From NCBI GenBank assembly GCA_038227875.1, contig JBBRPR010000009.1, positions 128,001 through 192,000 on the forward strand: a stretch of 64,000 nt of DNA. The letters run 5' to 3'. The position numbers and the translations under genes were made by a program. Under the pieces are notes generated by a model. That model searched no databases, had not been told where the DNA came from, and was given only the letters and a program-made list of their open reading frames with translations. The DNA comes from Planctomycetota bacterium. Lineage in GTDB: Bacteria; Planctomycetota; SZUA-567; H5-PLA8. Below are positions 1,807 to 25,461 of the stretch, piece after piece; the stretch's first letter is position 1, and the number at the start of each line of letters is the position of its first letter.

Positions 1807-3507
1807 ATGGCTATACCGCCGAAGAAAGTAGTTCCCGCGAAAGCCCCGGCAGGACCATCCGCAAAATCTCCGGTCAACCCGGCCAAGCACGAGGACGAAG
1901 AGACGACGCTCGCCAAGAAGCGCAAAAAGCGCGACGAGGATGAAGAGGAAGAGGAGGACGCCGAGGACGACGAAGAAGCTGATGACGATGAGGAAGATGA
2001 AGACGACGAAGATGAAGAGGATGATGACGAAGAAGACGAAGATGAAGAAGACATCGACGAAGAAGAATTAGACGAAGAAGAAGAGGAAGAAGAAGACGAG
2101 GAAGAAGAGCTCGACGAGGAAGACCTTGAAGAGGTAGAACTCGACGACGAAGAGCTCGACGAGGACGACGAAGATCTCGATGACGACGAGGATGAAGAAG
2201 ACGACGAAGACGACGAAGACCTCGACGACGACGAAGACGATGAAGACGACGACGATGAGGACGACGAAGACGAAGAGGATGAAGAGGACGACGAAGACGA
2301 ACGTCCCGCACCCAAGAAGAAAAAGGGCAGCCGGGGAGAAGCGGCTGCCGTTGTGGCGGTAGGAGCTGTGGCGGCGGCAGGCGTAACTGCCGCCGCTGTC
2401 ATTGCGGCGAAGAAGGCCGGCGACGCGGGGACCAGCGGCAAATCGCCGGCGGTCAAGGCTGGCTCGGACGCATCCAAGAGCGCCAAGGGGCTCGCGTCGG
2501 TCAAGCCCACGGACGCGGCCAAGAGCGCCAAATCGCTGGCCTCAGTGAAGCCGACCGATGCCTCGAAAAGCGCCAAGGGCCTGGCCTCCGTCAAGAAAGA
2601 TGACGTTGAAGACGCTGATGCCGAAACTGATGTAACCAAGCCGGTGATGAAGGCAGCCTCCGCTCGCCCCCTCAAGGCGGGTGCTTCCTCCGCCTCCGGT
2701 GCGGCCGTCGGTTCAGCGCGTGTGTCAGGCAAAGCGGGCACGTCCCGTTTGTCGCGCGCCGTCGGCGACCCGAAGGAAAAGCAGCCACAGAAGCCAAATA
2801 AGATCGTCGGCTACATGATGATCGCCTGCGTGATCCTGTTCATCCTGATCATCGTGGTGCTGGTCACGCGCTGGGACATCATCAAGGCGCACTTCACCAA
2901 GGGACCGCCGCCGGCACCGGTGAAGAAGCTCTCCGATGCCGCGCAGGCTCTGGTGGACAAAGCGAAACAAGCGCACGACCTGTACGACGAAGGCGTCGCC
3001 GTGCCGCAGGCCGCCGCGGTCCTCTCCGCGCTTCGCGGAAAAACCAAGCCCGATCAGTTGTTGAAAGACAGCAAGCCGGAAGACGCCGAGGCGTTGCGCG
3101 CCGCAGCTTTGAAACTGGAGAAAGCGACGGAGCTTTTCGACAGCATCAAGGATTCCGGAAGCGTGGTGCCGGGGTACGAAGATCTGATCAACGAAGCGCA
3201 GAAGCGCCTGCCGGAAATCGACAAGGAACGCCACGAACTGGCGGATGTGGCCACCAGCATCGAGATGGCGAATATGGGCAAGGGCTTGAACAAGCCCCCG
3301 CCGCCCGACAACAAGCAGCCGGGCACTACGCCGCCGGTCGGTACCGGGATCCCCAAGCCGCCGGAAGAAATTCCGACGCCGCCAGATGGCATGACCATGG
3401 ACGATTGGCTGAAAAAGCTGGAAGAAGAGGACTACAGCAAGGCCTCAGACATCCGCAAGCTGATCAAGAAGAAGGAAAAAGAGAAGCAGGATCAAGAGAA
3501 GAAGTAG
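1807..3507 (+). CDS. Membrane-anchored hypothetical protein with extreme Asp/Glu tract
   Basis: ATG 1807 after SD AGGAGG; 123-codon D/E tract (1933-2301); three 15-aa repeats; TM helix IVGYMMIACVILFILIIVVLV; helical/Pro-rich C-terminal part; followed by a terminator. Confidence 0.85.
   Translation: MAIPPKKVVPAKAPAGPSAKSPVNPAKHEDEETTLAKKRKKRDEDEEEEEDAEDDEEADDDEEDEDDEDEEDDDEEDEDEEDIDEEELDEEEEEEEDEEEELDEEDLEEVELDDEELDEDDEDLDDDEDEEDDEDDEDLDDDEDDEDDDDEDDEDEEDEEDDEDERPAPKKKKGSRGEAAAVVAVGAVAAAGVTAAAVIAAKKAGDAGTSGKSPAVKAGSDASKSAKGLASVKPTDAAKSAKSLASVKPTDASKSAKGLASVKKDDVEDADAETDVTKPVMKAASARPLKAGASSASGAAVGSARVSGKAGTSRLSRAVGDPKEKQPQKPNKIVGYMMIACVILFILIIVVLVTRWDIIKAHFTKGPPPAPVKKLSDAAQALVDKAKQAHDLYDEGVAVPQAAAVLSALRGKTKPDQLLKDSKPEDAEALRAAALKLEKATELFDSIKDSGSVVPGYEDLINEAQKRLPEIDKERHELADVATSIEMANMGKGLNKPPPPDNKQPGTTPPVGTGIPKPPEEIPTPPDGMTMDDWLKKLEEEDYSKASDIRKLIKKKEKEKQDQEKK
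2467..2601 (+). repeat. Three tandem 45-bp coding repeats (DASKSAKGLASVKPT)
   Basis: DASKSAKGLASVKPT / DAAKSAKSLASVKPT / DASKSAKGLASVKKD with synonymous divergence. Confidence 0.85.
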
Positions 3508-3529
3508 CTTCAACCAGAACGGAAACGGC

Positions 3530-3574
3530 AAAGCGAGCAATTTGGATCTATCCAAATTGCTCGCTTTTTTATTT
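3530..3574 (+). terminator. Intrinsic terminator between convergent genes
   Basis: AAAGCGAGCAATTTGGA-tcta-TCCAAATTGCTCGCTTT followed by a T run. Confidence 0.85.
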
Positions 3575-3621
3575 AGAGAGTCTAGTGGTGGAAAGTTAGG
3601 CCAAGCGGCAATATCGCTCGA

Positions 3622-5988
3622 TCACACGATCTCCAGATTGACCTGCTTCTTCCCCAGATCGATATGCAGGATCCGCACGTCAAGCTTGTCGCCGAGGCGG
3701 AAGCTGCGTCGGTTGCGTCGGCCTTGCAGCAAGTGCTGGTTCTCGAAGTACTCGTAGTAATCCTCGTCGATGTCTTCGACCTTGACCATGCCTTCGACGT
3801 AGCAGTCCTGCAATTCCACGAACAGTCCAAACTCGCGCACGCCAGTGATCAGGCCGGGATGCGATTCTTTCATGTTGCGTCGCAGGAATTCGATCTGCCG
3901 GAACTTTTTGACTTCGGCCTCGGCCGAGGCCGCCTCGCGTTCGCGAATCGAGCAGTGCTGCGCCAGCGGCCGCAGAAACGCGATGCGTTTAAAGTACGAC
4001 TGCCCCGCCGCTCCGCCGCCGCGCTTTTTTCCGTGCACGGGCAACGCGGCTTCGCCGGGCGTGAAGTGCGAATCGAGCGCGCGGTGGACGATCAAGTCCG
4101 GGTAGCGCCGGATCGGGCTGGTGAAATGCAGGTACCGCGAAAAGTTCAGCGCGAAATGAGGCTGGCATTCGGCGGCATACTTCGCTTGCTTCAAGCTCGT
4201 CAGCAACGCCAGATGAACCGTGTGTGCGAAGTCCTTGCCGCGCACCCGGTCGAGCACGCTCTTCAACTTCAAGCGGTCCAGCGGCGGGCGCAGGGAGATG
4301 CCGAACTCCTTCACGAATTCCATGAAGCGGTCGAGCGACTCGGGTTTCGGATCTTCGTGGATGCGGAAGAGCCCCGGGATTTCATGCTCGACCAGGTACA
4401 TCGCGACAGCGCGGTTGGCGGCGAGCATCATGTCTTCGATCAGCTCGTGCGCCCAGTGGTGTTCGGCCTTCTCCCAGCCGGCAACCTCGTTCTGAGCATT
4501 GAGCTTCAACTTAACTTCCGGCAGTTCCAACTCGAGCGACCCGGTGGCCAGGCGCTTCTTACGCAGCGCTTCGGCAAAGGGGCGCATGACTTTCAGCGCC
4601 GCGTAGATCTCCGGCGTGCCGACGAGCTCCGGCTTTTCCTGCTCCAGAGCGTCGCGGACTTGATCGTACGTCAGGAACGCCGCCGAGCGGATGTAGCTGC
4701 GTTCGATCTTGATCGTGTCGATGGTCAAGTTGGGCGTGAAGGTCATCGAGACGGTCTTGGTCAGGCGCGTTTTGCCTTGCACCAGCGAGCAGAGATTGTT
4801 CGAGAGCTTCTGCGGGAGCATCGGGAAGACGCTGCCCGGCAAATAGACGCTCGTCGACCGCTCGCGCGCTTCCAGATCGATGGGGCTGCCTTCGCGGACA
4901 TAGTGCGAGACATCGGCGATGTGAACCAGCAGCGTGATGCGCCCGTCGTCCTCCGTGCGGATGGCGACGGCGTCGTCGTGGTCTTTGGCGTCCGGCGGAT
5001 CGATGGTGAACGTGATCGGGGTCGAGTAATCCGTGCGGCCGATCAGGTCTTCGTCGGGAACTTCCAAGCCAATGGCTTCGGCCGCGGCGAGCACTTCCTC
5101 GGGAAATTTGGTGCGGACGTTGAAATTCTCGACGATCGCGCGCACGTCCGCGTCGGCTTCACCGGCGGGTCCGAAGACTTCGATCACCCGCACCAGCGGC
5201 CGGAAGCCCGCGCGCTGCGAGCCTTCCGGGTCGACCAGTTCGACGGCGACCTTGTCGTGGTGCTTGGCGCCGTTGCGGTCAAGAGGCATCACGTCGAATT
5301 CGGTGAACATGCCGCGCGCGTCGGGGATTACGGTGCCGCCCAGCGCATGGCGGAAGCGATCGCTTTCCTGCGCCTGGTACGTCCCGATGATCCGCGAGCG
5401 GCCACGTTCCAGAATTTTCACCACGCGTCCGGAGGCGCGCGAATGCGGCGAGCCGTAGCTCTGTCCGAACTTGCCGCGCCGCGGGCGTTCCACGCGGCGG
5501 CTCAACGCCACCGCCACGAGATCGCCGCTGAGCGCCCCGCAGAGATCGTCGGCGCCGACGAAAATATCGTTGCCGGCCGTTTCGCTGATGACAAAGCCCA
5601 TCCCGCCGCGCTTCACCTCGATGCGACCGATGATGGTGCCCTTGGGTGCGCGTACCTGCTTGCGCGCGTGAGCGTCCTCCTCGTCTTCCTCCGGCTCCGG
5701 TTCGTCGCCCGGTTCGGCTTCTGTTGATTCGTCTGAATCGTGGTCGCGCGATTTCTTTCCGGCCGGCTTGCGTTCCGCGCCGCCATCGGTGGCGGGGAGT
5801 CCGAATTTGCCGCGGCGCAATTCGGCGATCTCGCCGCTTTCCGCCAGTGCCTCCAGGATGCGGCGGAACTGCCCGTAGAATTCATCGGGAATTTCCAGCG
5901 CCTTGGCCAGTCCGCGTTTGCGCATCGGCATGTACTTCGCCGAGGCCATCAATTCAAAAATCCGGGCTTTGGTCTGATCGGTGTCCAT
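3622..5988 (-). CDS. rnr: Ribonuclease R
   Basis: N-terminal HTH, cold-shock domains, RNB motif TIDPPDAKDHDDA, HFTSPIRRYPDL, C-terminal S1 domain. Confidence 0.93.
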   Translation of the reverse strand: MDTDQTKARIFELMASAKYMPMRKRGLAKALEIPDEFYGQFRRILEALAESGEIAELRRGKFGLPATDGGAERKPAGKKSRDHDSDESTEAEPGDEPEPEEDEEDAHARKQVRAPKGTIIGRIEVKRGGMGFVISETAGNDIFVGADDLCGALSGDLVAVALSRRVERPRRGKFGQSYGSPHSRASGRVVKILERGRSRIIGTYQAQESDRFRHALGGTVIPDARGMFTEFDVMPLDRNGAKHHDKVAVELVDPEGSQRAGFRPLVRVIEVFGPAGEADADVRAIVENFNVRTKFPEEVLAAAEAIGLEVPDEDLIGRTDYSTPITFTIDPPDAKDHDDAVAIRTEDDGRITLLVHIADVSHYVREGSPIDLEARERSTSVYLPGSVFPMLPQKLSNNLCSLVQGKTRLTKTVSMTFTPNLTIDTIKIERSYIRSAAFLTYDQVRDALEQEKPELVGTPEIYAALKVMRPFAEALRKKRLATGSLELELPEVKLKLNAQNEVAGWEKAEHHWAHELIEDMMLAANRAVAMYLVEHEIPGLFRIHEDPKPESLDRFMEFVKEFGISLRPPLDRLKLKSVLDRVRGKDFAHTVHLALLTSLKQAKYAAECQPHFALNFSRYLHFTSPIRRYPDLIVHRALDSHFTPGEAALPVHGKKRGGGAAGQSYFKRIAFLRPLAQHCSIREREAASAEAEVKKFRQIEFLRRNMKESHPGLITGVREFGLFVELQDCYVEGMVKVEDIDEDYYEYFENQHLLQGRRNRRSFRLGDKLDVRILHIDLGKKQVNLEIV

Positions 5989-6043: not shown

Positions 6044-7249
6044 CTAAGCGTCGCGCGCGACGTTGAAGACGAGACGGGTACTTCCCTGATCGTCTTCCAC
6101 TTCAGTGGAGTGGTGTTGGTGGCGCGACGGCTTTTTCTGGGAGAGCAGCACGACACCGCCGATCAGCGCGAGGATCAGCACGACCAGCGTGAATATTTTC
6201 CAGAAACTGTACGGCCGGTCGCCAGTCACTTCTCCGGTCTGGCCGTTGATCTGGAAGCAGAAACTTTTGTTGTTGAAGCGGTAGCAGCTCACCCACAGCG
6301 GCAGCAGTATGTGCTTGTAGGTGATGCCATTGTACGCGGTATTGATCGACAGAATGCGCTGCTCGTCGCCGCCGATTTCGCTGCGCACGCCTTCGCGGAT
6401 TTCGTCGGCGATCACGGATTTCGCCTTGCTCCAGCCTTCTTCGCAGGAGACGGCGTAGCGTTCCGCGCCGAAGCCGCTGAGGTACTCGGGCGTGTATGGC
6501 GTCAGTTCGTTCAGACCGTATTTCGTCGGGTACTTGGCGTCTTTGCCCGCGTCGATCAGCACGTCGTCGAAAAATTCGCTGTGAACGCCGGAGACTGGAA
6601 TCCACATCGTGTGCCGGACCTGGCGTGTCTTGGTGACGGTCTTGCCGTCTTCGGTGGTCGTGTAGGTTTCCGTTGTGTAATAGTACGTACCGCGTTCGCC
6701 CATCCAGTGGCTAATGGTGTTGGAGTCGTACGTCCAGAAGGGCCGGTAGACGCCATGGAGTTGCTTGGCGTGCGAATCGTTTTTGAGCGAATTGGGCGCG
6801 AACCAGAGTCCGGAAATCCACTTCGAGAACAGTTTCTGCGCTTCTTCGAGCGTGACTTTGAATGGCAGCACCGCTTCGGGCGTGACGATGTCCTCGGCCG
6901 TCTTCTCGCCTTCGCCGTCCTCCACCACCAACGGCGCGCCACAGTAACCGCAGGTTGTCGCGCGGATATTCGCGTCGAGATGCGCGATCGCGCCACAGCC
7001 GCTGCAGCGGACATCGCGGCGCTGGCCGGGCGTTTCGCCGTAGCCGGTGGACTTGGGTTTCGCGAGGTAATCGTTGAACGAGTACTCTTTGATCTCATCG
7101 GCCGTCTGCGGAATCTTTTCTTCGTGCCCGCAGAAACCGCACTTCAACGCGCCGTCCTTCGGCGCAAAAACCAGATTCGCGCCGCAGGCCTTGCAGGGAA
7201 ACTTGCGCTCTTTCTCGGTGACGGTCGGTGCGGCTTCTTCTTGCGCCAT
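6044..7249 (-). CDS. Zinc-ribbon membrane protein (YdjG-like, SPFH-associated)
   Basis: Four CxxC pairs (CKAC, CGFC, CSGC, CGYC), YRPFWTYD, LLPLW, INGQTG..G.RP motif, C-terminal TM; ATG 7249 preferred. Confidence 0.8.
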   Translation of the reverse strand: MAQEEAAPTVTEKERKFPCKACGANLVFAPKDGALKCGFCGHEEKIPQTADEIKEYSFNDYLAKPKSTGYGETPGQRRDVRCSGCGAIAHLDANIRATTCGYCGAPLVVEDGEGEKTAEDIVTPEAVLPFKVTLEEAQKLFSKWISGLWFAPNSLKNDSHAKQLHGVYRPFWTYDSNTISHWMGERGTYYYTTETYTTTEDGKTVTKTRQVRHTMWIPVSGVHSEFFDDVLIDAGKDAKYPTKYGLNELTPYTPEYLSGFGAERYAVSCEEGWSKAKSVIADEIREGVRSEIGGDEQRILSINTAYNGITYKHILLPLWVSCYRFNNKSFCFQINGQTGEVTGDRPYSFWKIFTLVVLILALIGGVVLLSQKKPSRHQHHSTEVEDDQGSTRLVFNVARDA

Positions 7250-7368
7250 AGCTTTCCGTGACACCCATGGAGTCGGCGGGCAGAAAAGCTGGCTATCTTA
7301 AGACAGCCAGTTTGACGGATTATTTTTGGAAGACTTTACGCCTGGAGTGAGCGCGCGCAAGGTTCACG

Positions 7369-8388
7369 CTACAATTTCGCCAGCAGCTCAGTCTTCTTCG
7401 CCGTGTACTCCGCCGCATCGATCAGCCCGGCTTCCATGAGCTTCTTCAGCTGGCTGAGTTTCCCGACGATGTCCTCGGCTCCACCGGCAGCGGGAGCCGC
7501 CGGGGCCGCAGCGGGCTGCGGTTGCTGTTGAGCGGCGGCCATGGCGCTGGCCATCTGCCCGCCCATCATCGCGCCCGCGCCCAATCCCATGCCGATGCCG
7601 GCCATGCCGCCGGGCTGTTTCGCCGCGTCGGGAATCGCATTGGCGACCTGGAACTGCGTGAAGCGATTGAGATCGCCGATCGCGCCCATCTGCGAGCGCT
7701 TGTCGAGCGCTGCTTCGACTTCTGGCGGGACGGAGATATTCGAAATGATGAAGCGCGTCAGAGTCAGGCCGTGGGATTCGAAATCCGCGCCGATATCCTT
7801 GGTCAGCGCGCCGCCGATCTCCTTGTAGTTCGCCGCCAAGTCCAGGCACGGCACCTTGGCTTTGCCCAATGCTTCAGCGAACGCCTGGAGCAGCATGTCG
7901 CGAAGGTACTCGCTGATCTTTTCCGTCTCGAAGAGGCCGTCGGTGCCGACGATCTCTTTCAGGAAGACGCCGGGATCAGAGATGCGCACCGCATACGCGC
8001 CAAATGCGCGGAGGCGAACGACGCCGAAGTCGGCATCGCGCATCATGATCGGATTCTGCGTGCCCCACTTCAGGTCCGTGAACTGCCGCGTCGCGACGAA
8101 GTACACTTCGCTCTTAAAGGGGGATTCGAAGCCGTACTTCCAGCCCAGCAGCGTGGAGAGGATGGGCAGATTCTTGGAATCGAGCGTGTAGGTGCCCGGT
8201 CCCATGACGTCGGCGAGCTTGCCTTCGCGGATGAAGACCGCCGCCTGGCCTTCGCGGACGACGAGCTTCGCGCCGTTCTTGATTTCCTTGGCGTAGACGG
8301 GAAAGCGGTAGACCATCGTGTCGCGGGAATCGTCGACCCACTCGATGATCTCAATGAACTGTGCCGTCAACCGATCGAAGAACCCCAT
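7369..8388 (-). CDS. SPFH/band-7 domain protein (YdjI/'virion core protein'-like) with C-terminal SHOCT
   Basis: IEIIEW...MVYRFP, LVVREGQAAVF, SPFKSEVYFV, KWGT.NP, Gly/Met-rich linker, LSQLKKLMEAGLID..EY..KK.ELL (SHOCT); ATG 8388 after SD GGAGA. Confidence 0.9.
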   Translation of the reverse strand: MGFFDRLTAQFIEIIEWVDDSRDTMVYRFPVYAKEIKNGAKLVVREGQAAVFIREGKLADVMGPGTYTLDSKNLPILSTLLGWKYGFESPFKSEVYFVATRQFTDLKWGTQNPIMMRDADFGVVRLRAFGAYAVRISDPGVFLKEIVGTDGLFETEKISEYLRDMLLQAFAEALGKAKVPCLDLAANYKEIGGALTKDIGADFESHGLTLTRFIISNISVPPEVEAALDKRSQMGAIGDLNRFTQFQVANAIPDAAKQPGGMAGIGMGLGAGAMMGGQMASAMAAAQQQPQPAAAPAAPAAGGAEDIVGKLSQLKKLMEAGLIDAAEYTAKKTELLAKL

Positions 8389-16224: not shown

Positions 16225-18507
16225 TTGAACATGAAAGGAATAGCGCCCTTGCCAACCCGCACCGACATCCACCCGCTGCACCCGCTCTTTCGCAGGACCG
16301 CCGTGATGCTTCTGGCGGTATTCAGTCTCACCTTTCATTTTCGAACCAACGCGGCGGAGAAGCTCAAGCCTGAGCATGTGGCGATCCTGGTGCCGCAGAT
16401 TCTCGAGATCCACGTCAAGCAGCACACCATGGATCCGGCGTTCATGCGCCGCCTGATGAAGGAATACGTCGAGCAGCTCGATCCGGGCCGCAGCTTCTTT
16501 TTGAAATCCGAATACGACGCCGTGTTGACGCTCACCGACGACGAATGCAACACGCTGGCTCAGCGCGCCACCGACGGCGACTTGGGACAGTTCAAAACGA
16601 TCCTCAAGAACTTCCTCGACAAGCAGATCGCGCGCGACACGGAGATGTACGCCTCGCTGGACAAGCGCGCCGATGAAATCCGCCAGAAGGCCAAGGACCG
16701 TTTGAAGGCCCGCACCGACAAGGCCGACGCGACCAAGCCTGACACCGCGATCAAGCCCGACACCGCCGTGAAGCCCACCAAGCCCGACGAAACGGTGACC
16801 AAGGACAAGGACAGCGAGGACGATTACATCGATCCCGACGGCATCATCTGGAAGGACCGCCCGGCGACCAACGAGGAACGCGAAAAGCGTCTGATCATCT
16901 CCACCGCGTCGCTCTACTCCCTGAACAAGGAGTACCTCAAGGACGACGAAGCGATGAAGCTCGCCATCCAGGCAATTCAGCGCAACCGCGAAAAGTGGCA
17001 GAAGACGGTCGTCGACGACGACGTCGCCAAGATTTTCCTGAAGAGCTTCATGATGGCGCTGGACCCGCATTCCGATTACCTGGAAGGCGACGACGAAGAA
17101 GATTTCACCTCGCACATGGAACGCAGCTTCGCGGGAATCGGCGTGCAGATTCGCCCGTGCCCGCTGGGCGCGCATATCGAAGATGTGATCAAGGGCGGAC
17201 CCTCGGACAAGAGCGGCAAGTTCGCGCGCGGCGACCAGATCGTAGCCGTCGACAACGTGGTGCTGGCCGGCATGACCATCAACAAGATCGTCAAGCTGAT
17301 CAAGGGCGAGAAGGGCACCGACGTGAAGTTGACGGTGCTGAAGCGCGACACCAGCAAGACCGATGTCATCACCATCAAGCGCGACACGATTGAACTGGCC
17401 GACATGCGCGTGAAGGGCAAGACCATCGATTCTCCGGACGGCCCGGTGGGCTTGATCTCCGTGCAGGCGTTCTACCAGGGCGTGCACAACGACGTCCGCG
17501 ACCGCCTCAATGAAATCAGCAAGGGCAAGGCGCTCTCCGGCGTGGTGCTGGACCTGCGCAACAACACCGGCGGGTACCTCGACGAAGCGATCGGACTGGC
17601 GAGCCTGTTCATCGAATCCGGCGCGGTGGTCGGCGAACGCAACGGCCGCAACAAGATCCAGTGGCAGGACGATCCGGACGAGAAGATCGAATTCCGCGGC
17701 CCGCTGGTCATCCTGACCAACCAGTTCTCGGCCAGCGCATCGGAAATCGTGACGGGCACGCTGAAAGCCTACGGCCGCGCGGTGGTCGTCTCACACACGC
17801 AGACGTTCGGCAAGGGCACCGTTCAGAAGGTTCTGCCGCTCAATTCGCACGGCCTGCCGGGCGAAATCAAGGTTACGACCGATCAGTACTTTCTGGCCAA
17901 TGGTTCGTCGGTGCAGTTGAAGGGCGTTGATCCGGACGTGATCATTCCCGGCCCGAAGCTGCTCAACGAAGACGGCTACCTGGAAGCCGCGACGCCCAAC
18001 GCGATCGCATGGAACCAGATTCCCGGCCGCCTCGACAACGCCAAGCCCGAAGTGAAGATGTGGATGGAGTGGAAGAACAAGAACATGAAGTCGCTGCAGG
18101 GTCGTTCCAAGCAGCGCATCGACGCCAACCCGGAATTCGCGAACCTCTTCGACTTGAAGAAGCGCAAGGAAAAGGAAAAGGCGAACCCCGAGAAGGACAA
18201 GCCCGACAATCCTGACGCTCCGCCGGCGCTTGACGAGAAGAAGAAGGACGAGAAGGATCCGCAGGCCGACGAAGCCGTGGCGATTGTGCGCGACATGATC
18301 AGCACGTGGCCGTTGAACGACGGACAAGCCGTGGCCGAAATGCCGCCGCCTCCGCCGGTTGTCGCTCCGTCCGTCGCTGCCGACACCGAGCTGCAGGCGC
18401 AGATCGAAAAGTTGAAGGAAGAGAACAAACAACTGCGCGAAGAGAACGAGAAGCTGCGCAAAGGCGTGACCCAGTCCAAGCCCGTGAAAGACGAAATCAC
18501 CAAGTAG
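16225..18507 (+). CDS. prc: Carboxy-terminal processing protease (S41A, Prc/Tsp type)
   Basis: Signal peptide, LDPHSDY, PDZ (GIGV..GDQIVAVD), DLRNNTGG, SASASEI, TFGKGTVQ, C-terminal NAIAWNQI; exact start uncertain (TTG 16249 has an SD). Confidence 0.9.
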   Translation: MNMKGIAPLPTRTDIHPLHPLFRRTAVMLLAVFSLTFHFRTNAAEKLKPEHVAILVPQILEIHVKQHTMDPAFMRRLMKEYVEQLDPGRSFFLKSEYDAVLTLTDDECNTLAQRATDGDLGQFKTILKNFLDKQIARDTEMYASLDKRADEIRQKAKDRLKARTDKADATKPDTAIKPDTAVKPTKPDETVTKDKDSEDDYIDPDGIIWKDRPATNEEREKRLIISTASLYSLNKEYLKDDEAMKLAIQAIQRNREKWQKTVVDDDVAKIFLKSFMMALDPHSDYLEGDDEEDFTSHMERSFAGIGVQIRPCPLGAHIEDVIKGGPSDKSGKFARGDQIVAVDNVVLAGMTINKIVKLIKGEKGTDVKLTVLKRDTSKTDVITIKRDTIELADMRVKGKTIDSPDGPVGLISVQAFYQGVHNDVRDRLNEISKGKALSGVVLDLRNNTGGYLDEAIGLASLFIESGAVVGERNGRNKIQWQDDPDEKIEFRGPLVILTNQFSASASEIVTGTLKAYGRAVVVSHTQTFGKGTVQKVLPLNSHGLPGEIKVTTDQYFLANGSSVQLKGVDPDVIIPGPKLLNEDGYLEAATPNAIAWNQIPGRLDNAKPEVKMWMEWKNKNMKSLQGRSKQRIDANPEFANLFDLKKRKEKEKANPEKDKPDNPDAPPALDEKKKDEKDPQADEAVAIVRDMISTWPLNDGQAVAEMPPPPPVVAPSVAADTELQAQIEKLKEENKQLREENEKLRKGVTQSKPVKDEITK

Positions 18508-18566
18508 CGCGCTAAAGCGCGAGGGGCCAGGGCCAGGGGTCAGAAAAGAGCGAGTGATTTGAGATG

Positions 18567-18601
18567 CAGGCGCGACCAGAAATGGTCGCGCCTGTTTTTT
18601 T
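18567..18601 (+). terminator. Intrinsic terminator
   Basis: CAGGCGCGACCA-GAAA-TGGTCGCGCCTG followed by T7. Confidence 0.9.
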
Positions 18602-18700: not shown

Positions 18701-19369
18701 TTAGCCGCTCACGTCCGCGTTGGGCGGCTCGGTTTTCCAGAGCTCCACGCTGACGCCCTCGGGGCTGGGCGTAAAGCGGTAGATCTTGTCGGCGTACTTT
18801 TCGAAGACCGTGTGTTCGTGATGGCTGATCATGATCACCTGGAAGCCCAGCTCGCGTCCGGCGCGGTGGACGATGTTCACCAGGCGCGGGACGAGGTCCG
18901 GGCGCAGCCAGCAGTCCTGTTCGTCGAGCACCAGAAACGGGCGGTGTGTTTTGGGATCCAGCGTCGCCAGCGCGTACATGCGCAGACCGACGGAAAGCAC
19001 ATTGGCGACCGAACCGCCCTGGCCGCGGATGATGTCCTCCTCGCAACCGTCGCGGACGACGGTGAACTCAATCGCAGCAGCTTTATTCTTGATCGTCTGC
19101 GTGACTTTCACCGCGATGGGCTGGTCGAGGACTTCGACCAGCGCCTGCGTCAGATTGCGTTCCAGCAATTGGCTGATGTGCTGAAAGAGCTCGCTGCTGA
19201 GTTGCTCCAGCGCTTCGCTGACCTGCGTCGACATCGCCAGGTACGCGCTGACGCGTTCGAACTCGGCGCTGATGCGCGTTTTCTGCGCGGCGCTGGTTTC
19301 GTGCAGCACGGTGAGGCGATCGAGCCGGCGCGCAAGCGCTGCGGGTGAGCGCAGATCGGGCGGCGGCAT
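18701..19369 (-). CDS. C-terminal half of a split Rad50/SbcC-like ABC ATPase (signature, Walker B, H-loop; no Walker A)
   Basis: N-terminal coiled coil, then GQGGS (signature variant), FLVLDEQD (Walker B), FQVIMISHH (H-loop), YADKIY; ATG overlaps the upstream stop (TGATG). Confidence 0.8.
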   Translation of the reverse strand: MPPPDLRSPAALARRLDRLTVLHETSAAQKTRISAEFERVSAYLAMSTQVSEALEQLSSELFQHISQLLERNLTQALVEVLDQPIAVKVTQTIKNKAAAIEFTVVRDGCEEDIIRGQGGSVANVLSVGLRMYALATLDPKTHRPFLVLDEQDCWLRPDLVPRLVNIVHRAGRELGFQVIMISHHEHTVFEKYADKIYRFTPSPEGVSVELWKTEPPNADVSG

Positions 19370-19704
19370 CAGGCGCGGCGTCCTTCAGCAGGGATGCTGC
19401 CGCCGTGCGCGGCGCGGTGGGATTCTTCGACGCTGGCCAGTTGCGTCTCGATCCCGTCGAGGTGCTTCTGATAGTCGGCGCGCAGGCGCTCGTTGTTGGC
19501 GATCATGTCTTTGAGCTTCTTCTGCAGCTCGGCGAGATCGTCGGTCTGGTATTCGTCGCGCGCTTTCTTGCGCAGCTTTTCGAGAGCTTCCTCGGCGGAC
19601 TTGCGGTTGGTCTCCGCGGCGATGCGCTTTTCGTTCAGCGCTTCGAAGCGCTTGCGCAACTGCTCGATATTTTCCTGCGCCGCGTCACTTTTCAACTTTG
19701 CCAT
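19369..19704 (-). CDS. Small coiled-coil protein of the split SbcCD-like operon
   Basis: 111 aa, heptad-rich (IEQLRKRFEAL...LAELQKKL); perfect SD AAGGAGGT; overlaps both neighbours. Confidence 0.8.
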   Translation of the reverse strand: MAKLKSDAAQENIEQLRKRFEALNEKRIAAETNRKSAEEALEKLRKKARDEYQTDDLAELQKKLKDMIANNERLRADYQKHLDGIETQLASVEESHRAAHGGSIPAEGRRA

Positions 19705-20653
19705 CGGGCACGACCTCCTTCGCCAGCTCCAGAATTTCTTCCTGCACCGCCGCGGGGTAACGGTCGATGTTCTTCTTTAAAAACGAGGTCAAGCCGCCGC
19801 CGCCCTGCGTGCGCAGCGTCCGCAGCTCGTTCAAGCCGGAGACGAAGAGCGAACGTTCGGTGTCGGCCGCCGCGGTCTTGGCGGCGCCAGCGTGAAACAC
19901 CTTGGCAAATTTTTCGTGCGGCACTTCGACGATCTCGCTGCGCCAGCCGTGCGTGTCGATGTCGACGCGGAGCACCGCGGGGACGCGCTCCTTGTTGCCG
20001 TCGCTGAATTTCACGCGCGCGATGTTGCCGGGATTCATCCACGTGGTCACGCCCTGTACCACCGCGGGCGCGGGCGTGTGGATGTGGCCGTTGACCAGCA
20101 GCGTGACGCCAGGAATCTCCGTCGCGTTGAAGCGCCCGCTCGATTCGTAGCCGGCGAAGCGGATGTCGTGGTGCGCCATCCAGAAAACCAGCGGCCGATC
20201 CTGGACCAGGAATTCTTCGGGCATCTCGAACGCCTCGGGAATGCGCTGCCCCCAGGAGGTGCCGCCGATGATCACCAGCCGCGACCCCATCCAGCCGCGC
20301 CACGGACGGTCGAAGTCGACGATGCGCAGCCGTCGCGCGCGAACCACGATCTGCAGCGTGTCGTCGTCGCTGAGTTCATTGGTGGCGCAGTCGTGATTGC
20401 CGTAGATGCAGAGGACCTCGCCGTCGAGTATCGCCATCAGTTCGGCCAGCAGCCAGTTGGCATTGTCGCGCGGCCAGTGGAAGACGTCGCCGAGGATCGC
20501 GGGGATCAGCTTGTTCTCCTTGGCGTACTTCAGGCACCACTGCAGCTTCTTCAAAATTGCGCGCGGATAGTCGTCGGAACGGAATCCCGGCACGCGGCTG
20601 GCGAGATGCGGGTCGCCGATGAAGAGGATGCCTTTGTAGATTTCATTTGGCAT
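19685..20653 (-). CDS. Mre11/SbcD-like metallophosphoesterase nuclease
   Basis: Five phosphoesterase motifs GDPH, GDVFH, GNHD, AHHD, GHIH, plus NPGN and a C-terminal helical tail. Confidence 0.9.
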   Translation of the reverse strand: MPNEIYKGILFIGDPHLASRVPGFRSDDYPRAILKKLQWCLKYAKENKLIPAILGDVFHWPRDNANWLLAELMAILDGEVLCIYGNHDCATNELSDDDTLQIVVRARRLRIVDFDRPWRGWMGSRLVIIGGTSWGQRIPEAFEMPEEFLVQDRPLVFWMAHHDIRFAGYESSGRFNATEIPGVTLLVNGHIHTPAPAVVQGVTTWMNPGNIARVKFSDGNKERVPAVLRVDIDTHGWRSEIVEVPHEKFAKVFHAGAAKTAAADTERSLFVSGLNELRTLRTQGGGGLTSFLKKNIDRYPAAVQEEILELAKEVVPDGKVEK

Positions 20654-21992
20654 GGGTGTGCTCCCGCCGCGAGAGCAGCGACTCAGCGTCCACCGCGCCG
20701 CCGCAGGTCGGGCACGTCGGATTGCTCGACGCCCACGCGCGGATTTCGTTCATCACGCCTTGGCGCTCGGCCTCGAGATCCTTCGCTTCCTGAGCCGCGT
20801 CCCTGGCGCGGGCTTCCAACTGCGCGCGGCTCTCGAGCAGCTCAACCAGCGCGCGAGTTTCCTGCTCGGCTGGCAAGACGCGGAGCACTTTCAACACATC
20901 GCGGGCCTGGACATGAGCCGCGAAACGGCGCTGCGCGGCCTCGAGTTCCTCGGTCAGGTGCGCGAGCTTCGCCGCATCGCCGAATTCCGGCGGCTCGTCG
21001 AGAATGGAAAGCTGTTCCGCGCGCCCCGCGTTGACGGCGTGCGCGCGTTCCTGCTCCTCCAGATGCTGGCAGAGCCACGCCAGAGCCGCGGCATCGCCGA
21101 GCCGCGGCGGCGGGGTGATCGCGCGCAACGCCTGCGACTGCGCCGTCCATGTGTCGCGCGCGTCGTGGTAATGCGCGAGGGATTCCAGCACCACCGTCAG
21201 TGCGCCGGTATCCGGCAGAGGGGGCGGGGGAGTCAGCGCGCGGATCAGCTCGACGGCAGACTGGCAGCGGCCATGGATTTCCGACTGTGTCTCCAGGTGT
21301 TCGACCAACTGCCTCAACTTTTCCGTCTCGCGTTCAGCGGAGACGATCGTCTCGTAAGCGCGCTCGGCCTCCGCGATCGATTTGTTCAGCTCCGCGACCG
21401 GATCGAGCGCCGCGAGCAGCGCGTCGGCGGCATGGAGCTCCCGTTCCAGGCGCGTCTTTTCGCGGGAGGCTTCCATGACCTTGGTGCGGTGGCGCTTCTG
21501 CATTTCGACCAGCAGCGCCGCGTCGGAGGCCGACGCGAAAAACAGCGCCGCGCGGCTGGGCGGTTCATCGAGCAGAAAGATCGGCGCTTTCTGCGTCGCG
21601 AAGTGGATGTCGAAGGCTTCGCGGCGTTCGGCGGCGTCCGGCGCGTCGGTGGGGATGACCTTGGGCAGGCGCAGCACGTCCTGGATCTGCTCCAGGATGT
21701 CCTTTTTGACCCGATGGACGGGTTCGCCGTCGAGTACGTAGCCCGGCACGCCTTTTTTCCGGAACCATTCGATGGTGTGGCCGTCGTCGGTTTCGACGAT
21801 GACCTGGCAGTCCTTCTCGTTGTGGCGGACCATGTAGCTGCCCTTTTCGTTGCCGCAAAGGGTTTGGAGCGCGCTGACGACCGCCGATTTGCCGCAGTTA
21901 TTGGGGCCGATCAAGACGGTGAGGCCCGCCGCCGGTTCGATAACGGTGAGCGCGTGGGACATGTAATTTTTAAGCGTGATTTTTTTCAGCAT
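20643..21992 (-). CDS. N-terminal half of a split Rad50/SbcC-like ABC ATPase (Walker A, Q-loop, repeat arm, zinc hook)
   Basis: MLKKITLKNYMSH, GLTVLIGPNNCGKS (Walker A), FATQKAPIFLL (Q-loop), coiled coil with 39-aa repeats, CPTCGG at aa 427; no Walker B or signature. Confidence 0.85.
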   Translation of the reverse strand: MLKKITLKNYMSHALTVIEPAAGLTVLIGPNNCGKSAVVSALQTLCGNEKGSYMVRHNEKDCQVIVETDDGHTIEWFRKKGVPGYVLDGEPVHRVKKDILEQIQDVLRLPKVIPTDAPDAAERREAFDIHFATQKAPIFLLDEPPSRAALFFASASDAALLVEMQKRHRTKVMEASREKTRLERELHAADALLAALDPVAELNKSIAEAERAYETIVSAERETEKLRQLVEHLETQSEIHGRCQSAVELIRALTPPPPLPDTGALTVVLESLAHYHDARDTWTAQSQALRAITPPPRLGDAAALAWLCQHLEEQERAHAVNAGRAEQLSILDEPPEFGDAAKLAHLTEELEAAQRRFAAHVQARDVLKVLRVLPAEQETRALVELLESRAQLEARARDAAQEAKDLEAERQGVMNEIRAWASSNPTCPTCGGAVDAESLLSRREHTHAK

Positions 21993-24270: not shown

Positions 24271-24657
24271 CTACGCCGTTTCCGTCACCGGTTCAATCGG
24301 GATGATGATCCAGGCGAGCACATAAAAGAACACGCTGATGCAGGTCAAAATCGCAACCACCGTAATGATGCGCACGAGCGCCGCATCGATGCCGGCATAG
24401 CGCGCGAATCCGCCGCAGACGCCGCCCAGCACACTGTCGTTTCGCGAGCGGTACAAGCGCTGTTGTTGTGCGAGCGCGCGCTGAGGTGGCTCGAACCGCG
24501 TGGGCGCCGCCGGATACGCGGCGGGTATCGCATCGGCCAGGCACGTCTTGCAGTGGTGCTTGCCGGCCACCGTCACGTCGCATTCCGCACAGACCAGGTT
24601 GCCGCATGAAACGCAACCCGCCACCGCCTCACGGTCATCATGAATCTTGCAGTTCAA
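24271..24657 (-). CDS. B-box zinc finger plus PspC domain protein
   Basis: C..H...EAV..C..CG..VC.EC......HHC..C (B-box), then LYRSRNDSVLGGVCGGFARY.GID..LVR...YVLAWIIIP (PspC); TTG start after GAGGGG. Confidence 0.85.
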   Translation of the reverse strand: MNCKIHDDREAVAGCVSCGNLVCAECDVTVAGKHHCKTCLADAIPAAYPAAPTRFEPPQRALAQQQRLYRSRNDSVLGGVCGGFARYAGIDAALVRIITVVAILTCISVFFYVLAWIIIPIEPVTETA

Positions 24658-24681
24658 CGCCACACCCCTCCGGCACTTCAC

Positions 24682-25170
24682 TCAATTGCAGATCCAGAAA
24701 ATCGCCGCGACCAACAGCGTCCAGAACATCGCGGCCCCATAATCGGTGATGCCGAAAAGGCCCAGCACACCACCCCTCTCTTTGATGTCCGCTCGCGGTA
24801 CGACCATGACCGCCATCAAGGCTCCGACGAGGTAGATCCCGAACCCCGAGCCCAGAGCACACAGAATCGCGAAGAAGATGCCCTCCAGATCATGGTGCCG
24901 GTGGGAGATCTGGCCTCCAACAAAGCCCATCATTCCACCGACGACGACCGCAAAGGTGATCAGTCCGAAATTGAAGCCTCGCGCAGCGCGCGTTTCGCGA
25001 TTCGCGGTCGCGGTTACCGCCAGTTGCGCCGGCACGGCTTCGGCCTCGGCCAGACACTTCTTACAGACGTGATGATCGGCCAGTTGCACGTCGCAGGCCT
25101 CGCAGATCAGATTTCCGCAGGACGCGCAGTGCAATTCCGCTTGCCGGTCCGCGTGCAGGTAGCAGTTCAT
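24682..25170 (-). CDS. B-box zinc finger membrane protein
   Basis: MNCYLHADRQAELHCASCGNLICEAC...VCKKC followed by three hydrophobic helices. Confidence 0.8.
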   Translation of the reverse strand: MNCYLHADRQAELHCASCGNLICEACDVQLADHHVCKKCLAEAEAVPAQLAVTATANRETRAARGFNFGLITFAVVVGGMMGFVGGQISHRHHDLEGIFFAILCALGSGFGIYLVGALMAVMVVPRADIKERGGVLGLFGITDYGAAMFWTLLVAAIFWICN

Positions 25171-25461
25171 CGTTGAAATCCCAAGTTCGTATCGACCTCT
25201 ACAATAGACCACGATTGCAAGGCGAATGCCATCAGAAAGTATTCGCTTGGCGCCGTCGCATCTATCGCTCCGGCCATGGTTTGCGGGATTGAATCAGCCG
25301 GAGTGATAGGACGGTGAAACGCGGCCGATTAAAGATTCTTTCCGCGTGAGGTATTAAGAATCTTTAGCCCCCACGCATCAGACCCCCAGGCCCCGAGTTC
25401 TGGGGTCGACGGGAATACGTTCACTCTTGCACCGCCACGCAATCGCGCGAAGATAGGACGC

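Follow-up and report, generated by a model that had tools for sequence, protein, structure and literature searches.

A split Rad50-like ATPase and an Mre11-like nuclease encoded in a conserved four-gene cassette of Planctomycetota

The usual description of Rad50, SbcC and the SMC proteins is of one self-folding chain, whose two strands pair within the molecule as an antiparallel coiled-coil arm, the apex being the hook or hinge. A different layout is found in a stretch of 64,000 nucleotides from a Planctomycetota bacterium (GenBank assembly GCA_038227875.1, contig JBBRPR010000009.1, positions 128,001 to 192,000), here called the window. Four overlapping minus-strand open reading frames (ORFs), which appear in the ORF listing in the order g1-g2-g3-g4, form a cassette in which the motifs of a Rad50-type ATP-binding cassette (ABC) head are divided between the first and the last gene. 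The genes for an Mre11-like nuclease and a small helical protein lie between them (Table 1).

Table 1. Features of the cassette and its surroundings (numbered from the first nucleotide of the window)
Feature	Positions	Strand	Length	Description
g1	20643-21992	-	449 aa	SMC/Rad50-type ABC head N-half, arm and CPTCG tip
Repeat part of the g1 arm	20643-21240	-		Arm past residue ~250, in tandem helical units
g2	19685-20653	-	322 aa	Mre11/SbcD-like metallophosphoesterase nuclease with helical C-terminal tail
g3	19369-19704	-	111 aa	Small helical protein with conserved central G-T-D-D turn
g4	18701-19369	-	222 aa	About 100 helical residues, then ABC head C-half
Hairpin and T run	18566-18595			GC-rich 13-bp hairpin, then the T run; between g4 and the convergent S41 peptidase gene
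S41 peptidase gene	16225-18507	+		Tail-specific protease with PDZ domains, long Lys/Glu/Pro-rich C-terminal tail and short coiled-coil-like end
PspC-domain gene	24271-24681	-		N-terminal Cys-rich CxxC...CxxC segment
Adjacent gene	24682-25212	-		N-terminal Cys-rich CxxC...CxxC segment; hydrophobic tail

Genes of the cassette and their products

The overlaps between the four genes measure 11 nt (g1/g2), 20 nt (g2/g3) and 1 nt (g3/g4). Purine-rich Shine-Dalgarno-like sites lie ahead of g2 (GGGAG), g3 (AAGGAGG) and g4 (GAAGGA), and none is present upstream of the g1 start. A preliminary description of the locus had reported four overlapping genes with such sites at the three internal starts, and both the ORF listing and a reading of the junctions confirm it. 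The hairpin downstream of g4 is likely to be the terminator that ends the operon. The GC content of the cassette (0.61-0.65) is similar to that of the remaining window and shows no anomaly. Elsewhere in the window, the PspC-domain gene and its neighbour resemble a pair of tandem relatives.

Conservation was read from alignments drawn from related loci: A3 for g1 (58 sequences), A4 for g2 (52), A5 for g3 (52) and A6 for g4 (53). Rows L023 and L038 were left out of A4, L042 and L086 out of A5, and L035 out of A6. All of the motifs that had been named from the single sequence are found, and they are conserved in these alignments.

The first half of the head is encoded by g1. Its Walker A motif, GPNNCGKS (G29, N31, N32, G34, K35 and S36), and the Q-loop glutamine Q134 are invariant, and family scans align g1 solely with the N-terminal part of SMC/Rad50-type ABC ATPases: AAA_23 (4e-10) and Rad50 NF003034 (4.6e-8). 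A further match is to phrog_16465, an 'exonuclease' phage family (8.8e-19). The best NCBIfam Rad50 model reaches 31.5 bits against a cut-off of 700 and is, therefore, far under threshold. Foldseek returns the heads of Smc5/6, cohesin, SMC, Rad50, RecF and RecN at similar E-values (5e-8 to 4e-5). For this reason the g1 head alone cannot separate Rad50 from SMC, whereas the Mre11 partner does. Sequence searches of the PDB with single cassette proteins and with profiles gave marginal matches only. For g1, the matches are N-terminal pieces of Rad50 (147-203 residues) that stand alone, and the existence of such fragments indicates that two-chain Rad50 heads are feasible.

In the AlphaFold2 model of g1 (predicted local distance difference test, pLDDT, 80.6), the N-terminal lobe of an ABC head is followed by a helix of 94 residues (158-251). 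The distal arm is modelled as helices 263-290, 301-328, 340-369 and 376-423 with proline loops between them, and two cysteines lie in a small terminal hairpin. This part of the arm consists of tandem 39-residue helical units at a spacing of 37-40, each with a PP turn. Counts of the PP motif give one to eight copies across g1 homologues, and it is this copy number that spreads g1 over lengths of 371 to 754 aa. The lengths of g3 (96-115 aa) and g4 (206-261 aa) are constant. A C-terminal CxxC ends the arm in 56 of the 58 homologues, an HxH comes after it in 34 of the 58, and the g1 chain stops about 20 residues past it. The CxxC is a putative zinc hook, which would bind zinc and allow arms to dimerise.

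Which gene provides the rest of the head? The preliminary description held that g4 supplies the parts that g1 lacks, and this has stood up: the signature variant GQGGS (G116-S120), the Walker B motif LVLDE (L146-E150) and the H-loop SHH (S182-H184) are invariant among the g4 sequences. The D-loop region reads QDCW. Family matches are to the C-terminal end of SMC_N (5.4e-4), to mad3 of PADLOC (1.8e-8) and to phrog_15167, an 'ATPase' family (1.4e-8). The set of ABC-head motifs is complete and invariant, but shared out between g1 and g4.

The assignment of g2 as Mre11-like is also supported. All five phosphoesterase motifs claimed for it are invariant in its alignment: DxH (D14, H16), GD (G55, D56), GNHD (G85-D88), H161/H162 and GHxH (G189, H190, H192). 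The protein matches the calcineurin-like phosphoesterase family Metallophos of Pfam at 4.3e-10, and its AlphaFold2 model has a pLDDT of 87.7 and a predicted TM-score (pTM) of 0.80. Among the Foldseek matches listed for this model, every one is Mre11 (E 1.6e-11 to 8e-9, TMq 0.50-0.58), and a profile search of the PDB finds Mre11 at E 0.079 only. The modelled tail has four helices (residues 257-314, pLDDT 54-84), which may possibly form the part that binds the ATPase; in Mre11/SbcD, a helix-loop-helix at the C-terminus binds the Rad50 coiled coil at its base.

In the central G-T-D-D turn of g3, G53 and D55 are at least 90% conserved, and searches of Pfam, NCBIfam and PADLOC with this protein returned nothing but coiled-coil-type noise, including JetC at E 1.4e-3 or weaker. 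Its gene sits directly ahead of the g4 part in both the split layout and the permuted layout described below. Since the order g3-then-g4 is colinear with a canonical Rad50 read on from the hook, g3 could provide the arm with its distal return strand, or else brace it. Complex prediction with g3 as a partner of g1 and g4 gave 0.51, against 0.06 for the best control, in which g1 was swapped. Of 157 solved complexes, 116 passed the mark for such predictions, as did 2 of 215 mismatches, and passing scores of 0.60 or less include 18 of the 157 solved complexes and both of the passing mismatches. The runs share at least 78% of contacts, with a partner pLDDT of at least 73. The prediction weakly favours a place for g3 in the arm. 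The earlier proposal that the small protein completes or braces the arm is weakly supported: g3 is conserved, colinear and retained in the permuted variant, and it may belong to the arm.

Split, permuted and phage-borne relatives

Is the split a peculiarity of one genome? In a sample of 201 genomes of the phylum, with at most eight candidates scored per genome, g1 was found in six (the present one included) and in none of three from the same family. The order g1-g2-g3-g4 is kept in all five of the other, distant genomes, at 34-56% identity. A pattern scan with one genome per species recovered a g4 relative in 314 genomes, of which the best 80 are mainly Planctomycetota with some Desulfobacterales and Spirochaetia, a metagenome-assembled genome (MAG) of Zixibacteria and a MAG of Bacillota.

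Synteny was counted at 62 loci with at least 3.2 kb upstream. All four genes are present at 53 of these; three have g1, g2 and g4 without a tblastn match to g3 (two of them with a small ORF in its place), one is degraded and interrupted by a 503-aa ORF, and five carry g4 alone. The four-gene synteny that the preliminary description proposed to look for is a feature of these neighbourhoods. The recurrence of the arrangement is far beyond chance, and the split is an ancient, conserved and natural layout and no artefact.

In three of the five genomes with a lone g4, g1 and g2 are on another contig, accompanied by g3 in the sole locus long enough to hold it. The halves of the cassette need not, therefore, be linked, which fits chains that come together in trans. 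The lone copies (L026, L033, L036, L040 and L077, with g4 at about 7001-7640 or 3332-3967) belong to Pirellulaceae/Planctomycetaceae, and the one in L026 lies ahead of an acetyl-CoA carboxyltransferase gene and a Ser/Thr kinase gene. In the degraded cassette (L055, 3962-7645), no g1 match is present, g2 is missing its first ~64 residues, and the 503-aa ORF, possibly an insertion element, is on the opposite strand between g3 and g4. The three genomes of the same family have only the S41 peptidase gene recognisably in common near the site, and comparison with them gives no date for an insertion.

An exhaustive profile search with g4, covering 1.84 billion cluster representatives, gave 2661 relatives at E ≤1e-3; of these, 877 reach ≤1e-10 and 106 reach ≤1e-30. 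The best 150 of the 2661 comprise 62 proteins under 300 aa, none of which matches a Walker A pattern, seven of 300-569 aa and 81 of at least 570 aa. Every one of the 81 long relatives has a CxxC within its last 70 residues. In 68 of them both motif patterns match, with Walker B ahead of Walker A, and in the other 13 one of the patterns failed; the canonical order, with Walker A first, was seen in none of the 81. Such circularly permuted proteins (for example P0131-P0134, P0185, P0197 and P0246; a search for longer g4 relatives gave proteins of 657-694 aa) consist of a g4-like part, a linker, a g1-like part, an arm and the CxxC. Because g4-like and g1-like parts are fused in 81 of the 150 nearest relatives, the two proteins can be tied to one head. 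Together with the co-occurrence of g1 and g4 at 56 of the 62 loci, these fusions argue for the claim of the preliminary description that the head is assembled in trans. Among the g4-like proteins of intermediate size, P0121, P0124, P0127, P0128 and P0130 (475-531 aa) have a C-terminal extension of 250-300 residues, for which there was no precomputed Pfam domain and no match to the Walker A pattern.

The permuted ATPases have partners from the same families. In a metagenome locus, a 102-aa ORF that is weakly g3-like (hhalign 61%) is followed by the permuted fusion and an Mre11-like gene. On plasmid pBSY19_1 of Bosea sp. RAC05, the corresponding proteins are an 87-aa g3 homologue (hhalign 96.5%, E 8e-10), a 637-aa 'AAA family ATPase' and a g2-like 'metallophosphoesterase' (99.96%). 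Thus, the permuted relatives resemble the cassette in drawing on the same three families and in having g4-like and g1-like parts that end at a CxxC. They differ from it in that the two parts are fused with the C-half first, in the gene order small protein, ATPase, nuclease, which is a cyclic rotation (g3, g4::g1, g2), and in being borne on megaplasmids. The permuted form occurs on 21 plasmid records, all typed as non-mobilizable; the 15 among the matches listed are from Proteobacteria and range from 268 kb to 1.3 Mb. It is absent from the phage collection searched, and the trio has no model of its own in PADLOC or NCBIfam, the best matches being Rad50 models that extend from the N-terminus to about the hook. 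In one plasmid record, a 925-kb non-mobilizable replicon of Vibrio vulnificus (L121, 2182-7660), the permuted ATPase and two partners come after an ATP-dependent helicase gene, with topoisomerase and lytic transglycosylase genes nearby.

Distant relatives of both halves are also encoded by phages, at 20-25% identity and hhalign values of 94.9-99.5%. In Bacillus phage 0305phi8-36, gp8 joins an Mre11-like domain (detected by tblastn with g2) to a g1-like N-half (hhalign 99.5%); the g4-like C-half is gp5 (94.9%), three genes away. gp8 belongs to the Mre11::Rad50 fusions of the Mimivirus R555 group (Yoshida et al. 2011, PMC3175470). The phage is like the cassette in combining an Mre11-like domain and a g1-like N-half with a separate g4-like protein, and unlike it in that the nuclease is fused to the N-half. 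For the 0305phi8-36 protein, Yoshida et al. 2011 note of one P-loop segment that it 'was not observed', and they assign it to no other gene (PMC3175470). To judge by profile similarity, gp5 supplies the segment that was 'missing' from gp8.

Microbacterium phage Magritte has a g4-like gp2 (hhalign 98.8%) beside clamp-loader-like and PD-(D/E)XK genes, and a g1-like gp155 that is ~40 kb from gp2 across the ends of the linear record. Scans of viral contigs gave no close relative: the g4 alignment had no matches, and the g1 alignment matched one distant locus. A distant relative on a viral contig has a UvrD helicase and a uracil-DNA glycosylase (UDG) close by. In large phages, distant relatives have genes of replication and repair as neighbours. 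Several other candidates were rejected. In Tunturiibacter phage Tunturi_5, an SbcD-like gene accompanies a g1-like 'exonuclease' of 485 aa; the neighbouring 212-aa and 97-aa proteins are not detectably g4-like or g3-like, and so no C-half was identified in this phage. The ORF of 244 aa that follows an 820-aa Metallophos::AAA_23 fusion on viral contig L106 is not g4-like, and Magritte gp1 and 0305phi8-36 gp6 and gp7 have no detectable similarity to g3 or g4.

Repair, defence and other roles

How does the cassette compare with canonical Mre11-Rad50/SbcCD, as known from E. coli SbcCD, archaeal and Thermotoga Mre11-Rad50, and T4 gp46/gp47? It shares with them the full set of ABC-head motifs, a long helical arm that ends in CxxC and an adjacent Mre11-fold nuclease with five phosphoesterase motifs, and the best curated-family similarities of its ATPase are Rad50 models. 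However, the ATPase is divided over two chains, probably over three if g3 is counted, with the cut shortly after the CxxC; where canonical Rad50 continues through an intramolecular coiled coil, g4 has a gene of its own on the far side of g2 and g3, and the nuclease gene lies between the ATPase pieces. The arm differs from that of canonical Rad50 in its variable, proline-punctuated repeats on one strand only, and the signature in its GQGGS form. The cassette also falls under the curated cut-offs for SbcCD, and in its own genome, which is 88% complete, the models TIGR00618 (sbcC) and TIGR00619 (sbcD) find no match at E ≤0.01. Full-text literature searches, whose scope did not include the ABC-ATPase classification of Krishnan et al. 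2020, found no account of a naturally split or permuted Rad50/SbcC; within that scope, the outcome agrees with the preliminary description, which knew of no experimental characterisation of the architecture.

The cassette probably encodes a non-canonical Mre11-Rad50 (SbcCD-type) complex that processes DNA ends, with a Rad50-like ATPase made from separate chains and a housekeeping role in repair. Within this reading, the head formed in trans by g1 and g4, together with its Mre11 partner, is well supported. In the lineages that carry it, the cassette most likely stands in for canonical SbcCD in the repair and recombination of the chromosome and does not serve defence.

The case for a housekeeping role comes mainly from phyletic distribution. 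In one genus, surveyed for g4 as the only cassette gene searched, g4 is present in single copy in 20 of 22 genomes and in all 20 that are at least 90% complete, the two misses being 74-76% complete. In none of the 22 does an SbcD pass the curated cut-off; seven have weak matches. Across the phylum sample, bona fide SbcD is found in 32 of the 201 genomes and in none of the six with the cassette (one weak match). The three genomes of the same family, which lack the cassette, each have a weak SbcD-like match. As these genomes are related and not independent, the distribution is a pattern and not a statistical test; the pattern is that of a lineage-fixed housekeeping enzyme standing in for SbcCD. 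In the window and in five related loci, the cassette is flanked by genes of metabolism, transport and regulation, and none of these six loci shows an integrase or transposase. No fifth gene recurs beside the cassette: shared neighbour families each occur in at most seven loci, which to judge by their records come from related organisms such as Gimesia or Pirellulaceae.

Several observations weigh against this interpretation. The distribution within the phylum is patchy, which would fit an accessory or defence gene as well. The apparent absence of SbcCD from the genome of the window is weak evidence, given its completeness. The lengths of the arms are a misfit for simple antiparallel pairing, with g1 varying so widely while g3 and g4 do not: the shortest g1 arm, of ~190 residues, is about as long as g3 plus the g4 helix, and longer arms exceed both. 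The complex prediction argues only weakly for g3 as part of the ATPase. Proteobacteria that host the permuted-form plasmids usually have SbcCD, and the permuted sister family on these large replicons may be doing something else. Finally, among 149 immediate neighbours of 42 non-redundant loci, seven have a PADLOC match at E ≤1e-15 (Cas3 twice, QatC, PDC-S17, a PD-DExK protein, a UvrD-like helicase and one protein that is an ABC transporter according to Pfam). The two Cas3 genes, which are type I-U/I-G-like, lie directly downstream of the cassette in Planctomycetota/Phycisphaeraceae loci (L084, 8655-11711; L095, 4508-7609).

Could the cassette instead be an anti-phage or anti-plasmid system of the Lamassu or Wadjet kind, in which foreign DNA ends are detected by the split ATPase and the Mre11-like protein acts as effector nuclease? 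The preliminary description had left room for defence, and the cassette does share with these systems a coiled-coil SMC-like ATPase coupled to a nuclease. The patchy distribution, the few defence genes nearby and the megaplasmid-borne sister form would fit such a role, as would weak PADLOC matches on the ATPase halves: in addition to mad3 on g4, these are GajA and AriA (the first ~60 residues of g1) and LmuB (5.2e-9, g1 residues 2-437). However, these are generic ABC heads, PADLOC has no model for the cassette, and g2 has no match in it at all. The partners that would identify a known system were not found. LmuA and LmuC have no match in PADLOC searches with g3 and g4, and the effector here is Mre11-like and the ATPase split, unlike in Lamassu; JetA, JetB and JetD of Wadjet have no match either, and JetC has one at coiled-coil level only, on g3. 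The TOPRIM domain that marks OLD, Gabija and PARIS is absent from all four proteins. Moreover, the cassette has the phyletic pattern of a core gene in one genus, seven loci of Gimesia or a related group have common flanking gene families, the flanks are of housekeeping type, and viral contigs hold no close relative. Defence is, thus, an unlikely function, and the evidence favours a housekeeping substitute for SbcCD.

It is still less probable that the cassette is a domesticated or resident phage recombination module, analogous to gp46/gp47, that serves a mobile element and not the chromosome. PHROG families fit both halves, phages 0305phi8-36 and Magritte encode homologous halves, and a viral cluster among the g3 look-alikes in Atlas offers a lead, though nothing further. 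However, no phage structural, integrase or replication genes flank the cassette in the window or in the other five loci, the composition of the cassette matches its surroundings, the phage relatives are distant, and g4 is conserved across a whole genus. Slighter again is the chance of an SMC-like complex for chromosome organisation or segregation. One homologue is named 'chromosome segregation protein', and the g1 head resembles SMC heads as well as those of Rad50; against this, the Mre11-fold partner is obligatory and its catalytic motifs are intact, neither a kleisin nor a hinge is present, and the best NCBIfam matches are to Rad50. The idea of a recently broken, functionless sbcC, produced by frameshift, rearrangement or misassembly, has nothing in its favour beyond the unusual look of the locus and is refuted by the nearest relatives, which are circularly permuted with no canonical single chain among the best 150, as well as by conservation: in dozens of species from several phyla, at 33-60% protein identity, the breakpoints and the overlapping starts are the same, and all catalytic residues are invariant.

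Assembly of the complex and its meaning

In the proposed Mre11-Rad50-type complex, g1 would supply the N-terminal lobe of the head, the outgoing arm and the CxxC tip, and g4 would supply the returning helix and the C-terminal lobe with signature, Walker B and H-loop. The g3 protein most likely forms the far end of the returning strand or else braces the g1 arm; the nuclease of Mre11 type would be g2. If the complex works as Mre11-Rad50 does, ATP would make two g1/g4 heads engage, the heads would hold DNA ends or hairpins in a clamp and g2 would then be licensed to cut, and zinc would link two arms at their CxxC tips.

A broader and more tentative proposal is that the split and permuted forms build an SMC/Rad50-like arm in a way of their own. 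The chain would end at the CxxC tip, the return strand would be provided in trans by g3 and the N-terminal helix of g4, and the expandable 39-residue repeats would lie on one strand. Such an enzyme might have replaced SbcCD as the sole one of Mre11-Rad50 type in whole genera and might also serve giant phages and megaplasmids.

What does this family add to the biology of Rad50-like proteins? A family that is cut or permuted at the hook implies that continuity of the chain at the apex is not needed, and its natural two-piece and three-piece versions are tools for asking how signals travel along the arm. The repeats on one strand raise the question of how such an arm is built. The split layout also explains the ATPase segment that was noted in 2011 as 'missing' from Bacillus phage 0305phi8-36. 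For bacteria that seemingly have no SbcCD, such as the genus in which g4 is fixed, the cassette is the likely DNA-end-processing nuclease.

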